A DNA stretch of 64,000 bases, taken from positions 10,511 through 74,510 of the forward strand of contig JAOUJM010000001.1 in the NCBI GenBank assembly GCA_029883265.1, in the 5' to 3' direction. Shown one piece after another: positions 17,854 through 25,800 of this stretch; position 1 is the first letter of the stretch, and every line of letters begins with the position of its first letter. The notes below the pieces were generated by a model, which worked only from the letters and a program-made list of their open reading frames with translations, was not told where the DNA came from and did not search any database. This DNA comes from Gammaproteobacteria bacterium (GTDB taxonomy: Bacteria > Pseudomonadota > Gammaproteobacteria > S012-40). A program made the position numbers and the translations under genes.

Positions 17854-18732
17854 GATATTGGTTTGCTGGATTCAAGAGCTCCTTTACTGATTTTGGCAAC
17901 TCGTATTGGGTACCATATCCAGGCATATCAAAAGCAGGTGCAGCTGGGCCAATGCGTGTATCCGGAATTTCTTGGAGAACGCGATACACATTCAAGTTAC
18001 TCACATCTGTGCCGGGACGAAGGGATAATGTTTCTGGAGTTGTTCCTAAGGGGCTTGCGAATGTACCGCGTTCATTCCCGAGACGGCCTATTAGCTGTCC
18101 AGGTTGCAATGAGCCAATCTCATCAGCACCATAAACAAAACCTTTATTCTTCGGCCAATCCCAGAACACATTTTCTGCACCATACTTGCTGGTCAAATAT
18201 TCATTCCATTGAGCGCCTGAAACTGCTCCAGTCTTGTTTGGAACACGATCACCGCCTTTATATTTTAATATACCGCCAGCAATAAAACCATATGTTAAAC
18301 CACCCAATAGCTCTGGATTCTCCCTGTTCTGCCACAAGTTCCTCAGACTTTGGACCTTTCTATCTGAAAATTCGGTACTAGTAGGAAAACCCAGCTTATC
18401 TAACTTAAAGAAACTATTAAAATTTAAAGAGAGGTCATTAAACTCTTCCCAGATATTTTTTCCTATATCTAGCAAAACCTCTAAAGTCTCATTTGTCAAT
18501 CTGTCACCAAGATCTTTATGAGCATTTAGGGTTCCTTTACTGAATCTCAATGCGTAATCACCCACATCTCCGTTTTGTTTCTGCTGGTTACTCCGGCCCA
18601 AAACAACCCCATTAATCTGATCAAGTTGCTGCATTGCCTCTTCTAAATTTTGTTGACTCTCAGAAACCTCTCCAACCCCCTCCTCCTTACTATGTCCCGC
18701 CAACGTCAATGGTAAATCCACTTCCTGGCCAT
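17834..18732 (-). CDS. Displaced native 3' end of the giant toxin gene (O0): ~165-aa pre-toxin segment, VPNK junction (18233-18244) and TNT-like NAD+ glycohydrolase domain
   Basis: ORF 17834..18817. The first 28 codons are encoded by the IS66 left end. The next 3 (HGQ) span the IR tip and the 8-bp duplication, and native sequence resumes at EVDLPLTLAGHSKEEG. C-terminal GQLIGRLGNERGTFASPLGTTPETLSLRPGTDVSNLNVYRVLQEIPDTRIGPAAPAFDMPGYGTQYELPKSVKELL matches the TNT pattern (R-x-G...G-x-F-x-S-P-x-G-T...Y-x-V...G-x-x-A-P-x-F...G-x-G-x-Q-Y). Confidence 0.75.
18725..18732. repeat. 8-bp target-site duplication, left copy (CTGGCCAT)
   Basis: Identical octamer immediately outside both IRs (18725-18732 and 22840-22847). 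Confidence 0.85.
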
Positions 18733-18755
18733 GTAAGCGTCCTAAACTCCGCACC
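18733..18755. repeat. IS66-type left terminal inverted repeat (element B)
   Basis: GTAAGCGTCCTAAACTCCGCACC versus the complement of 22817-22839, GTAAGCGTCCAAAACTCTGCCCC (first 10 nt identical, ~19/23 overall). Confidence 0.8.
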
Positions 18756-18816
18756 TTCCCAGTCAGTTTAAGATCCGTTAGCCTGCTGCTGTGTAAATTA
18801 CCAACAGGAGCAGGCA

Positions 18817-19173
18817 ATGAACGATCTCACTCAACCGTCCATCAAAAACATTCGCACGGATAAACGCAGCAAAGGCCCTGAGTATTGGCAGGCGCATATG
18901 GATGCGTTAAAGCAAAGTGGTATGACTAAAACCGGTTATTGCATGCATCACGGACTTTCTACGGCGACGTTTTTTAAGTGGGAGAAGAAACTGGCCAAGG
19001 CCTCGGCTTTGTTTGTTCCGGCTAAGTTGGAGACAGTGCCGGTGTATCCAGCCTCATCCAATGATCTGATTCGCATTGATCTGCCCAATGGTTGTGTGAT
19101 TTCCTTGCCAGTGTCGTGTTCACCTACTGAGGGTTTACGTTGGATCGAGACCTTGATGCGTGCTTCATGCTGA
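18817..19173 (+). CDS. tnpA: IS66-family TnpA (orf1)
   Basis: 118 aa, diverged paralog of 6931..7290. TGA overlaps the tnpB ATG (ATGCTGA). Confidence 0.85.
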   Translation: MNDLTQPSIKNIRTDKRSKGPEYWQAHMDALKQSGMTKTGYCMHHGLSTATFFKWEKKLAKASALFVPAKLETVPVYPASSNDLIRIDLPNGCVISLPVSCSPTEGLRWIETLMRASC

Positions 19174-21823: not shown

Positions 21824-21846
21824 GCTTCACCTTAATTGCAGATCAA

Positions 21847-22839
21847 TTATTTAAACGCGTTGATAAAATATTGCATATCGTGCAAATCCACAGGGTCCAA
21901 ATAACTTTGCCATGGCAAGGGCTGTTTCGCTTCATTTACGGCCGGTACGGCAATACGAGTGCCTGCGGCTTCTGGCATTTGTCCGGGGCCAAAACGATGC
22001 CAGCCAATGTCCCTACCATAAGATACATCATTAAGTGCCATAACAGCCGCGAGTAAATTTTTTGGGACTGTACCCCATTGGTTGAGGACGGAGTCCACCA
22101 CTGGACTAGCCTGGAGTGTGCTCAATATTTCACCCGGCGTATAGAATGCGTAAACATTTTTCTTTAAGTGATTCCGATCCATTCCATAGCGCTCAATTGT
22201 ACCATCACTGAGTCCTGCCGCGTTAAAGGTAACCGCACTGGATTTCAACCTGCCAGCTTGTGCCGAAGCAATGCCGCCACCGAGGGAGTGACCGGTAAAG
22301 GTTAGTGGTGATGAGCCTAACGCTATTTGAAGATCAATTGCAAGATTGATCCCAAATTCATATTGGGTCGAATTGAAATCGGATCCTTGAGCAATACTTG
22401 CTACTGCATCTTTAACCGCTTCATGCCGGCCCAATTTCGTATCCGTTCCTCGATTGGCGAATATAAATTCGCTTGTGCGATAATTAAAATAGAGTGCGCC
22501 TTGGTAGCCACTCTTCTTATCTACAAAATTTTCAGGTTTCATATCCAGGACATCAATAAAATCCCTACCCATGCGGTAAATATCCTCAGTGACTTTCTTT
22601 GGTTCCTTTCCGGTGTATTCTTGATAAACATCGTCAGATACCATAGCGTTTTCATACCAATCAAGGCTTCCACTAAAGTCCAGTCTGATTGGAGCGGCAC
22701 TAGCAAGCTGCGAGTTATATAGCGTTCCGTTTTCATCAACTAGCTGTCCGTTCTTGAATGTGAGTATCGGTTTGGTTTCAACGGCATCGGATGATTGTCT
22801 ATAAGGAATTTTGCCTGGGGCAGAGTTTTGGACGCTTAC
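21847..22839 (-). other. Transposon-encoded C-terminal toxin domain of the giant ORF (aa 6055-6384): alpha/beta-hydrolase lipase/phospholipase-type (GxSxG)
   Basis: VSVQNSAPGKIPYRQ...YQGALYFNYRTSEFIFANRGTD...LTFTGHSLGGGIASAQAG.... Nucleophile elbow GHSLGG preceded by an (A/F)xxRGT strand, as in class-3 lipase-like effectors. Confidence 0.7.
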
Positions 22840-25800
22840 CTGGCCATACCCATTATACGTTTTACCGCCATTACGAATAAGATTGCGACCTGGCTGGATT
22901 CCCCCAAATAGCGGCAACTCACCCAAAGCAGATTTCCAAGCATCCTCACCAGACACGCCTTTGCGAATAGACTTGGTGTAGTGTTTCTTAATCGCCTGTC
23001 TTTGTCGGTGGTCGTTTATTTTCAACTCATCAAGTTTGTTATCAAACTTTTTGGTCGACTGCTCAGCACTAATATATCCCGACGCAGCACTACTTAGTGC
23101 CTCAACAGCAACCGTCCGCCAGTCCGGCCGGTAGTCTTTCAGAGTCATGGAGTTAACGGCTATGCGGCCAACTCCAGTTAACGCACCACGTATCGCATCG
23201 CCTGCAACACCCGCGAAACCCCATCCATCAACTTTCCCAACGTTGCTTGGTAATGAAGATGTGACTCCACCCACTAATGCGCCAACCGCTACATTCGCGA
23301 ACAGATTTCCTGCTTGGCTATTGTATTTTTTACGCTGCTCAGTTGACTCCATGGCCATCGATAAGCCAGTCGATATAAGTGCTCGTCCCGCACCTTGTAG
23401 TGCACCCTTAACAACCCCTCCTCCTGTCTGATTCAATCCAGGTATTTGTGATATGATCGCGGCGATTGTCATTGATTTAACAATTTCTTCCTCGTCAATT
23501 TCATCGATGTAACCAACATTCTTCATGTATTTCTGTATGGCATACGAGGTCATTCCGGCAGCAATAATCGCCCCTTGCGGACCAAACACTATAAAAGCAG
23601 CAATAGATATGACAACAGAAGCAACATTCATCCAAAATATTTCAGACTTCGAGGGTTGATTCCTTGCAGGCATGCTTGGGTCCGTACTTCCAATTATCTC
23701 TCCCGGACTATAAGGTTTGAAGGTATCGGCATTGTTATGAATGTTTGTGACAACATTCGGAATGATTATGGATATTCCAGGTGTTAAATCAATATTGGTG
23801 ATATTGTTTGCGTTTGCAATCACATACCAAAGACTAGCATCTCCCCATACTTTACCTGCAATCGTTTCCAAAGTGTCACCTTGCACAACGAGGTATTCAC
23901 TGGCTGTATTCGCAGGATAGTTAGCACTAATGGCTTGATAATTTTGATCAAAGTCTGCTGAAATAACTCGATTCTTCCCTCTTTTTTCGTTATCTGCAAT
24001 CTCCTTGTTTGATAGTCGCGACTGGGCAAGTATTTGTGTATAGTCGGTTTCACCGGCACCTCGGTTGGATACTTCACCAATACCCCGTCCATTAAGATAG
24101 AAATAGCGGTTTACATCGTAATTTGTATTATCGATTTCATTACGCATAATGATTCGGCCGTCGGCATCAACCGTAAACTCAACTCGGCGCTCATATTTGG
24201 TGCCATGTAGTGGTGAGTTGGAATCATCCATTCTCATCAAGTGTCCATTTTGGTCATAATAAAGGTGAGAATACCCGTCAACAAAACCACGTGAATTTAC
24301 ATCCGACCTACCAACACTCTTTTTTGCAGAATCCCAATAGCTATAGAAATAGGAATTCCTGAAATTCTTTTGTTCCTCAATGCTCTTTACTTGATATGAG
24401 ACATTCTTTTCAGCTAGATCTAAACGATCTATTTCACGATAGGTGTAATCGTTATGAATTGTTGACTGCTCTTGCAAATATAGAAATTGATCCTCAGAAT
24501 TTTCCACTCTTTTACGATACTCAATACGAGAGATACGACTATCCAGATCATAGCTATAGTCGTATTGTTGTACAGACTGGGGTGGAATTGTGGTAACAAC
24601 AGTTTCTATATCTGGGTCATATAAATGAGAGGAGCTCGTTCGACCTAGCGCATCTAGCAAGCGCCGAGACACTAAATTTTTGTCTTCAACATTATCGACT
24701 ATTTTTCCGTGTTCAACAGTTTCTAAAATACCATTTTTTGTATATCCATATCGTTCGATCATAGTCGTATTCGCGCGAATATAGTTAACGCCAATTCGCT
24801 CACCTGCAAGATTATACAGGACTTCATATCCTTTATTTTCTGCAATTTCGACATTGCCAGACCCACCGACATCGAGTCTACCTTGTGTAATTCTAAATCG
24901 GTTCATTGAGTCGTAGTCATACCAATGTTCCTGGACGAAATCTCCAGTCGCTTCTCTATAGTCTGCTCCTCGATGAGCGTTAAGATCAATACCACCGTGG
25001 TACTTGGATACCACATGAATGCGATTTCCCATTTCGTCGTAATCATATGTAATATTGAAAAACGGATCGTTAATCTCGACAACACGATTGTAGTCATCAT
25101 ATATCGCTATCGTATATTGATAATCTTTTCCAATATCGGCATTTGCTCCCTCTTCGTAAACCGCTTCATAGGTTTTGTTACCATTGTTGTCGTAGCCATA
25201 CCGACTAACCAATCTAACACCATCATTTCCACCGTTAAAACCATAATCTACTTTTGCCTTTAATGACCCGTTATCATTGTAGTCAAACTCAATCACTTGA
25301 TCATAATCAGAATGATTAGTCATAAAATTGTTCAGACTATAGCGATATAAATCCATGTAGTCATAAGTAAAACCATGTAGCTGTGTATCAATATTATTCC
25401 ATGCGGCATCAGTTGCAATAATTGAAGCACCCGGATCCGTATTACCGATTTGATAGCGCAACTGCCCCCTTGCATCATAAAAATAGCGATAGCTACGGTT
25501 TCCGAGATCACGGTGGTAAACGAGCTTATTGAAATAGTCATATTGGTCTGTGATGGCTCGTGTTTCATAGTGCGGAATAATAATTTGAAGTCCAGCTTTC
25601 AAATCCGCATCAGTAATGTTATTTGCTTGACCTATCGAATTTGACATGTCTTCAACATTTAGTAAGCTATAGGCTATGGACGCCAAGGTATCGCCAGTTT
25701 GGACAATATAATTTAATTTTTCCCGACGTCCATAAAGGTAGACGGTTAATGTGTTTCCGACCACCAGTGTTTCGTCAACGACACCATTATCACTTCCAAT

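Follow-up and report, generated by a model that had tools for sequence, protein, structure and literature searches.

Can a transposon replace the toxic tip of a polymorphic toxin in a single event? The question is raised by a stretch of 64,000 nucleotides (nt), called the window here, from an uncultured gammaproteobacterium (lineage Pseudomonadota; Gammaproteobacteria; S012-40; NCBI GenBank assembly GCA_029883265.1, contig JAOUJM010000001.1, positions 10,511 to 74,510 of the forward strand). In polymorphic toxins (Rhs, CdiA, MafB and others), tips are thought to change through homologous recombination, the partner being an orphan cassette or incoming DNA. In the window, the end of a giant Rhs gene lies within e1, an IS66-family insertion sequence (IS) of 4,107 bp (window 18733-22839), and one of the terminal inverted repeats of e1 is translated as part of the giant protein. 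We consider it probable, at roughly 0.65, that e1 functionally swaps the toxin tip of this delivery protein by transposition. A first-pass annotation made from the sequence letters alone had proposed such a swap, by transposition and not by homologous recombination, and this is supported by a target-site duplication (TSD) identical at 8/8 positions and by the open reading frame (ORF) that is restored when e1 is removed. The features of e1 and of its host gene are as follows.

18725-18732, no strand: left TSD copy CTGGCCAT, read directly; same as 22840-22847
18733-18755, plus: left inverted repeat (IRL) GTAAGCGTCCTAAACTCCGCACC, from the repeat computation; 20/23 against the right one
18817-19173, plus: tnpA, IS66 accessory protein, 118 amino acids (aa); NCBIfam NF047593, E=4.2e-17, 62 bits against a cut-off of 28
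19167-19523, plus: tnpB, IS66 Orf2-like, 118 aa from ATG; PF05717, E=2.8e-33; NF033819, E=3e-29, 101 bits against a cut-off of 50
19554-21044, plus: tnpC, DDE transposase, 496 aa; PF03050, E=5e-85; PF13005, PF13007, PF13817; NF033517, E=9.5e-115
21095-21823, minus: predicted cargo immunity gene, ankyrin-repeat protein with an N-terminal signal peptide, Tli-like, 242 aa; Ank_2, Ank, Ank_4; N-terminus MIQNIKLRKYLFLLFGMSFMCSAC
21847-22816, minus: predicted cargo toxin, a start-less Tle6-type phospholipase domain with a GHSLGG nucleophile elbow; phmmer, PF26363 homologues
22817-22839, minus: right inverted repeat (IRR) GTAAGCGTCCAAAACTCTGCCCC, translated as VSVQNSAP in the same frame as the giant ORF and the cargo
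22840-22847, no strand: right TSD copy CTGGCCAT, read directly
22848-41001, minus: resident delivery part of the giant protein, with DUF6531, many RHS/YD repeats and LysM domains (Pfam)
17834-18724, minus: displaced former tip, a linker and a TNT toxin domain now without a delivery part; PF14021, E=1.9e-20; in frame with 22848 once e1 is removed
17560-17853, minus: candidate immunity gene, small, following the displaced TNT module; its match to Imm59 (PF15597, E=5.9e-4) is weak and misses the curated cut-off

The two ends of e1 belong together. The first-pass annotation had paired an IS66-type end at 18733 with a distal partner ending at 22839, and the imperfect 23-bp inverted repeats indeed match at 20/23 positions in the repeat computation, while a degenerate 23-mer with up to three mismatches found no match across 100 dinucleotide-preserving shuffles of the window. 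The 8 nt outside the two repeats, also singled out by that annotation, are identical at all eight positions. The IS66 family, as ISfinder describes it, duplicates 8 bp of its target, and a plain IS66 element measures about 2.4-2.7 kb with its IRR at or just after the tnpC stop. No such nearer right end was found in e1, as the 50 nt separating the tnpC stop from the ankyrin gene hold no IR-like sequence, and the IRR tip lies 1.8 kb beyond that stop. The structure was also recovered independently: a contig of 4,361 nt from another sample and another assembler (L003) equals window 18598-22958 with one mismatch and includes both inverted repeats and both TSD copies, so neither the element nor its duplication is an assembly artefact. 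The neighbourhood is tiled by four further contigs (L001, L002, L007 and L014) at 99.96-100% identity.

The transposition genes are intact. All three exceed the curated IS66 cut-offs; TnpC has all four domains (leucine zipper, zinc finger, DDE and C-terminal) and reaches 383.7 bits with NF033517 (cut-off 180), and for tnpB the ORF listing also allows a longer TTG-start frame (19140-19523). The ankyrin gene and the lipase domain lie downstream of tnpC, inside the repeats of e1 and convergent to tnpA-tnpB-tnpC, as the first-pass annotation had it. The inverted repeats have the IS66 form, about 20-30 bp long and beginning GTAAGCG (for comparison, that of ISPsko1 reads GTAAGCGTCCGGCG...; PMC12888890). 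The compact IS66 layout is seen neither in e1 nor in a second element of the window, e2 (3,654 bp; tnpC stop to IRR tip, 1.3 kb), whereas a related element on contig L012 is canonical; e1 and e2 are therefore passenger-carrying members of the IS66 family ('tIS66') rather than plain IS.

Across the IRR the giant ORF (21847-41001, minus strand; 6,384 aa) is uninterrupted, as had been read at first sight, running ...TYNGYGQ/VSVQNSAPGK..., where the slash marks the tip of the repeat (junction peptide YGQVSVQNSAPGK). Its resident part is of Rhs type (RHS_repeat, E=2.7e-68 and 4.9e-47, plus DUF6531; Pfam), with one transmembrane-like segment ahead of the tip (aa 5786-5818; motif and hydropathy scan). 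Deleting 18733-22847 in silico yields a single ORF of 6,350 aa that reads ...YNGYGQEVDLPLTLAG... and joins the frame to EVDLPLTLAG... and the TNT end, followed by the small immunity-like gene with its weak Imm59 match, as the first-pass annotation had foreseen; the reconstructed pre-insertion site is ...ACGTATAATGGGTATGGCCAGGAAGTGGATTTACC.... Because the duplication is perfect and the ORF is restored on removal, e1 must have entered a TNT-tipped Rhs gene as one unit, in the last 5% of the 19-kb gene and just upstream of the old tip. We are close to certain of this structure and of its origin in a single insertion event. It is extremely improbable that the lipase was the native tip, with the IRR a solo remnant, or that repeats were mis-assembled: only the unusual distance from tnpC to the IRR favours two events or an artefact, and against them stand the perfect duplication exactly flanking the IRL and the distal IRR, the ORF restored on excision, the single contig from another sample that spans everything, and the same architecture in e2 and in a third element, e3.

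The cargo of e1 resembles a toxin/immunity pair whose toxin lacks a beginning. The lipase domain forms the last ~323 codons of the giant ORF without the IRR and ~330 with it (a frame of 331 codons open to the IR tip). It matches PDB 7ubz_B, 'T6SS lipase effector' (T6SS, type VI secretion system; phmmer E=5e-11, residues 144-259), and has 84 PF26363 'phospholipase-like' homologues, several of them at the ends of Rhs proteins; its best database relative shares ~33% identity. Similarity to the nearest relative sets in at cargo residue 14 past the IR tip and the first methionine is residue 66, inside the conserved domain, so the cargo has no start of its own, and neither promoter-like sites above chance nor terminator-like sites were found in the e1 cargo. 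The first-pass claims of a start-less toxin domain carried with its immunity gene, and of a cargo without a promoter, were thus upheld, and the domain searches that it had proposed returned ankyrin, TNT and lipase matches. The 7UBZ paper names this lipase group Tle6, whose members are invariably paired with ankyrin immunity proteins (PMC11470151), and the assignment of the e1 cargo as a predicted Tle6-type toxin/immunity pair is supported. GC content does not distinguish the cargo from the host.

Is e1 alone in this? An inverted-repeat search revealed e2, absent from the first-pass annotation, at window 6847-10500 on the plus strand. Its features, and those of the sequences that flank it, are as follows.

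6041-6846, minus: 3' end of a further toxin gene, truncated and directly beside the e2 IRL, ...VDFALTLAGSS...FVPDNK-toxin, paralogous to the EVDLPLTLAGHS region of the giant gene
6847-6869, plus: e2 IRL, from the IR search
6931-7290, plus: e2 tnpA, intact
7278-7634, plus: e2 tnpB, intact
7647-9185, plus: e2 tnpC, intact
9194-9748, minus: convergent signal-peptide gene, 184 aa, with a signal-like N-terminus
9745-10477, minus: start-less lysozyme/SLT-like domain, placed through its homologues
10478-10500: e2 IRR, 23 nt identical to the e1 IRR
10506-17566, minus: orphan toxin/immunity cassette array between the displaced TNT module and e2, each cassette beginning GTWGTTCCARACAA, which encodes (V/F)VP(N/D)K

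The two elements share 86.7% nucleotide identity over a stretch that starts at the IRL and stops shortly before tnpC ends, and their last 33 nt are 94% identical; the cargos between are unrelated. In e2 the toxin frame (about 251-252 codons, VSVQNSAPRKNN...) is likewise open to the IR tip and uses the same IRR frame as e1. Pfam gave no direct match for the e2 toxin; its C-terminal domain has about 2,000 relatives, of which some match SLT and Phage_lysozyme2, one carries a peptidoglycan-binding domain and one lies at the end of an RHS protein, and judged by these relatives the domain is of the cell-wall-degrading effector type. The flanks of e2 (CAGTGATA and TGGAACTA) form no TSD and come from different toxin modules, an arrangement consistent with two copies having recombined or with an adjacent deletion made by the transposase. 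In another sample, contig L006 (189-740) holds a decayed e2-like left end with an intact IRL and a different flank, in which the tnpA start has changed from ATG to ATT and the tnpB-like ORF is truncated.

The third element, e3, lies on contig L011 from one of the same samples and encodes the closest TnpC outside the window (66% identity). Its IRR matches at 22/23 positions and lies 3.3 kb past tnpC; convergent to tnpC, its cargo comprises a toxin-like ORF of 290 aa, for which Pfam gave no direct match, and a gene of 239 aa with a weak SUKH match. Co-directional passengers are also present in e3 (L011 2215-3714), namely a protein resembling S26-type signal peptidases (PF10502, 4e-30) and two small proteins, of which one has a signal-like N-terminus. 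On contig L013, genes unrelated to transposition occupy at least 3.5 kb beyond tnpC, a stretch in which the IRR was not reached; the main co-directional passenger there (L013 2204-3469) is a DUF6973 protein. For P0004, available as a gene list only, one small unannotated ORF follows tnpC. The search for further IS66 copies, with or without cargo, that the first-pass annotation had called for thus returned both kinds, as the elements on L012 and L017/L018 (about 50% identity) are canonical, with the right end at the tnpC stop and, in L012, no cargo. Passengers between tnpC and the IRR are therefore a trait of this small clade, with contents that vary among its elements.

Beyond this population the clade seems absent or very rare, since a search of 185,579 reference genomes with TnpC peptides gave 50 candidate stretches and none confirmed, the exact IR pattern had no match in the same genomes, and the IR pattern minus three bases had none among viral contigs. 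Exact queries with the ankyrin protein, both TnpB proteins and the e2 toxin recovered the same locus from three to four samples and no new insertion sites.

The shared layout bears on how the cargos were acquired. The transposase may have used a distal right end and picked up an immunity gene along with the 3' portion of its toxin gene, so that tips moved incidentally and without adaptation. Capture through mismatched IS66 ends has been proposed for ISPa75-fosZ (PMC12888890), and the L012 element, with its IRR at the tnpC stop, marks the interval between tnpC and the IRR as the place where foreign DNA would be trapped. Yet three unrelated cargos share one frame, and each opens only a few codons away from an IRR of 22-23 nt that is nearly identical among them; accidents, if repeated, should not lead every time to one frame and to a genuine inverted repeat. 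We hold such a by-product of capture to be quite unlikely.

Three junctions at toxin loci can be read, and in 3/3 the orientation and the codon phase fit a fusion, with GTA AGC GTC in frame with the toxin ORF upstream.

Junction 1, e1 in the giant gene: AT GGC CAG/GTA AGC GTC
Junction 2, IRR side of e2: directly after GTA GTT CCA of the orphan-cassette junction (LFVVP/VSVQ)
Junction 3, IRL side of e2: abuts the truncated toxin-gene 3' end at TA TCA CTG; an 8-bp TSD would put GTA at a codon start

The chance of three fitting junctions is (1/6)^3, about 0.005, if they are independent and random. Target-site specificity was considered as a source of in-frame insertions and rejected as the cause of the phase, because four duplications (ATGGCCAG, TAGTTCCA, TATCACTG and CGCAGCTC) share no consensus.

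One insertion site of the lipase cargo lies outside toxin genes altogether. On contig L005, an IRR is followed inward by 76 nt of the lipase cargo (100% identity with the window), and on its outer side it directly borders a type I-F CRISPR (clustered regularly interspaced short palindromic repeats) array and not an Rhs gene, so this cargo's IRR occurs at two unrelated sites. In L005 (1-130) and L011 (5480-5560) the IRR meets the trailer end of a type I-F array at exactly the same outer junction, and the cargo differs (the e1 lipase and the 290-aa toxin of e3, respectively); inward identity is limited to the 22-nt IRR, and the arrays differ in their trailer-end spacers. Exchange at near-identical IRRs and IR-targeted insertion are both possible causes, and crossover at IRRs that shuffles tips between loci would explain two cargos at one CRISPR-adjacent junction.

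An ordinary disruptive insertion is the strongest competitor of a functional tip swap. A cargo-bearing IS66 element would have struck the 3' end of the Rhs gene by chance, leaving a chimera that is non-functional or irrelevant and passengers that are otherwise expressed or decaying. Passenger-bearing IS66 elements are common (PMC12888890), toxin loci are often interrupted by IS elements (PMC3150448), the duplications lack a target consensus, and no fusion is possible for the copy beside the CRISPR array. Chance does not readily account for correct orientation and phase at all three toxin-locus junctions, for two diverged elements that keep frames of 252 and 331 codons open to the IR tip without a start or ribosome-binding site of their own, for the position of e1 within the giant gene just ahead of the old tip, or for cargo modules that are intact predicted toxin/immunity pairs. 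We rate chance insertion as unlikely, though the least so of the alternatives.

Several observations nonetheless weigh against a functional swap. The three-junction statistic assumes independence, and the IRR side of one junction was inferred from its IRL side; e2 has neither a TSD nor a fusion to a delivery gene; and the e3 toxin ORF is in the VSVQNSA frame but separated from it by one TAA, with AAGGAG just ahead of possible starts, so that the e3 cargo may be expressed independently. No delivery mechanism is evident: the DPxGL cleavage motif of Rhs proteins is absent near the giant C-terminus (DPxG[LI] occurs only at aa 2657 and 3331), and no secretion-system genes (PAAR, VgrG, T6SS or other) were recognised in the giant protein or in the upstream ORFs examined. 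All examples come from one uncultured gammaproteobacterial population (an NCBI metagenome-assembled genome) and a few related samples. The empty-site allele was not found in a search with the reconstructed pre-toxin and TNT protein, a query whose only matches were the displaced tip of 327 aa and TNT domains of other scaffolds; because the giant protein itself was also not retrieved, this absence is weak evidence.

Taking both sides together, a transposition that re-tips the giant protein remains our preferred reading, and it would proceed as follows. The DDE transposase would insert the whole unit with an 8-bp duplication, its toxin domain not being translatable by itself. If the target were the 3' part of a polymorphic-toxin gene, and both orientation and phase were right, the result would be a protein made of the delivery region, the VSVQNSAP linker and the new toxin, with the cognate immunity gene directly downstream and on the same transcript as the fusion. 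The old tip and its immunity gene would be pushed past the IRL and become orphans; because both persist downstream, immunity to the former toxin would be kept. At this locus, the new tip would be the Tle6-type phospholipase with its ankyrin immunity protein, and the displaced one TNT. We infer that the cell makes and exports the fusion protein and that it is toxic, that the toxin would be silent when the element sits elsewhere, and that in-frame tip replacement is probably a selected function and not a lucky accident. More tentatively, at somewhat below even odds, the clade may consist of dedicated 'toxin-tip transposons', in which the IRR would serve as a translated linker for interchangeable start-less toxins with their immunity genes, harmless at any other site and armed only by in-frame insertion into a delivery gene, and in which the near-identical IRRs may also serve as crossover points that travel with the element.

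Since transposon ends and a TSD delimit the new tip, a mobile element could re-arm a resident delivery protein in one step, immunity included. If true, this would add a transposition-based route to the diversification of polymorphic toxins, beside homologous recombination. Were the fusion functional, toxin tips could move among unrelated scaffolds and genomes without sequence homology, and safe carriage of a toxin would be explained, because no start codon is available until it is fused. Such elements would be a natural counterpart of laboratory fusion transposons and would point to a screen for IS ends from which an open frame leads into a toxin domain that lacks a start.

The remainder of the window gives the setting of this locus. 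The variable C-terminal toxins (TNT, Tle6-like, LHH and NTP_transf_2), immunity genes (ankyrin, weak Imm59) and downstream orphans are those of an Rhs-type system. Sixteen orphan cassettes lie on the minus strand (window 1100-6040 and 10506-17566), with LHH nuclease and NTP_transf_2 domains among them, and all start with GTWGTTCCARACAA. This motif lies 0-3 nt past the stop codon of the preceding gene or overlaps it, GTAG variants supplying the TAG stop, and only about 14 nt are conserved at the cassette starts, far below the homology usual in Rhs/CdiA orphans. The VVPNK cassette junction (GTAGTTCCAAAC) was considered as a surrogate IRR and set aside, since it is only weakly similar and the IRRs actually seen are genuine IS66 ends. 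Two cassette starts (957-1105, VVPDKTLNHQASSG, and 1548-1696, VVPNKTLNHQASSG) share ~149 nt at 97% identity and look like a partial duplication inside the array. At the window start, an IS110-family transposase gene is cut off (1-738, minus strand; Pfam assignment from the matching contig L009).

On its upstream side the giant gene is accompanied by TPR, DUF6973 (44815-46089) and flagellar genes. The flagellar cluster directly upstream of the toxin locus (47000-64000, minus strand) encodes FliP, a FliN-like protein, an FlgE/F/G-type rod/hook protein, the FliI ATPase, FliF and FlgI; the same interval also holds a sigma-70-family factor and TPR proteins, and no T6SS, PAAR or two-partner secretion genes were seen in it. 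In the gap between the TPR gene closest to the start of the giant ORF and a gene of 491 aa, GTAACCGTGCAAAACTCCCCACC (41963-41985, minus strand) matches the e1 IRL at 19/23 positions, with weak similarity over ~47 nt, and may be a decayed solo IS66 end.

How does e1 compare with systems already described? Engineered fusion transposons of the TnphoA type, the closest analogy in function, carry a start-less reporter or domain beside a transposon end that is open in frame, so that a hybrid protein arises when they insert in frame. They are laboratory products with a Tn5 backbone, whereas e1 is a natural IS66 element with a toxin and its immunity gene in the place of the reporter. The cargo itself resembles the Tle6/Tli pair of Enterobacter cloacae (PDB 7UBZ; PMC11470151) in its homologous lipase domain, GxSxG elbow and secreted ankyrin partner; the known form is a free-standing T6SS effector, while the e1 lipase is a transposon-borne tip of an Rhs/LysM giant and of low identity. 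The locus also resembles C-terminal displacement in Rhs and CdiA proteins (PMC3150448, PMC3482391, PMC5361080), where a new tip and its immunity gene are placed on a conserved delivery protein and the old pair is kept as an orphan, and the window contains a classical orphan array as those loci do. The known route there is homologous recombination through conserved pre-toxin sequence, whereas the e1 tip is bounded by inverted repeats and a TSD and its junction peptide is encoded by a repeat. IS elements at Rhs/CdiA loci have been reported only as neighbours or disruptors (PMC3150448; PMC3482391; bioRxiv 2025.10.01.679605).

The first-pass annotation knew of no IS66 element with such a function, which holds in part. 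No report of a transposon-borne in-frame toxin tip was found in the full-text literature, a coverage outside which most subscription journals fall, and passenger-bearing IS66 elements as such are already described, with passengers in 7/25 of the Pseudomonas IS66 entries of ISfinder (PMC12888890). As far as checked, what is new is the start-less in-frame toxin cargo and its effect on the host gene, not the presence of cargo. Among the passenger-bearing elements, ISPa75 carries fosZ downstream of the transposase, with a predicted promoter of its own between the IRR and the gene (PMC12888890). Like e1, ISPa75-fosZ has a tnpA-tnpB-tnpC backbone, GTAAGCGTCC-type inverted repeats and a passenger between the tnpC stop and the IRR, and moves as a whole unit that leaves TSDs. 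Its passenger is a complete gene with a promoter, in contrast to that of e1, a domain with neither start nor promoter, its frame open through the IRR and an immunity gene beside it; unlike fosZ, the e1 toxin would become functional only by fusion to a host gene.

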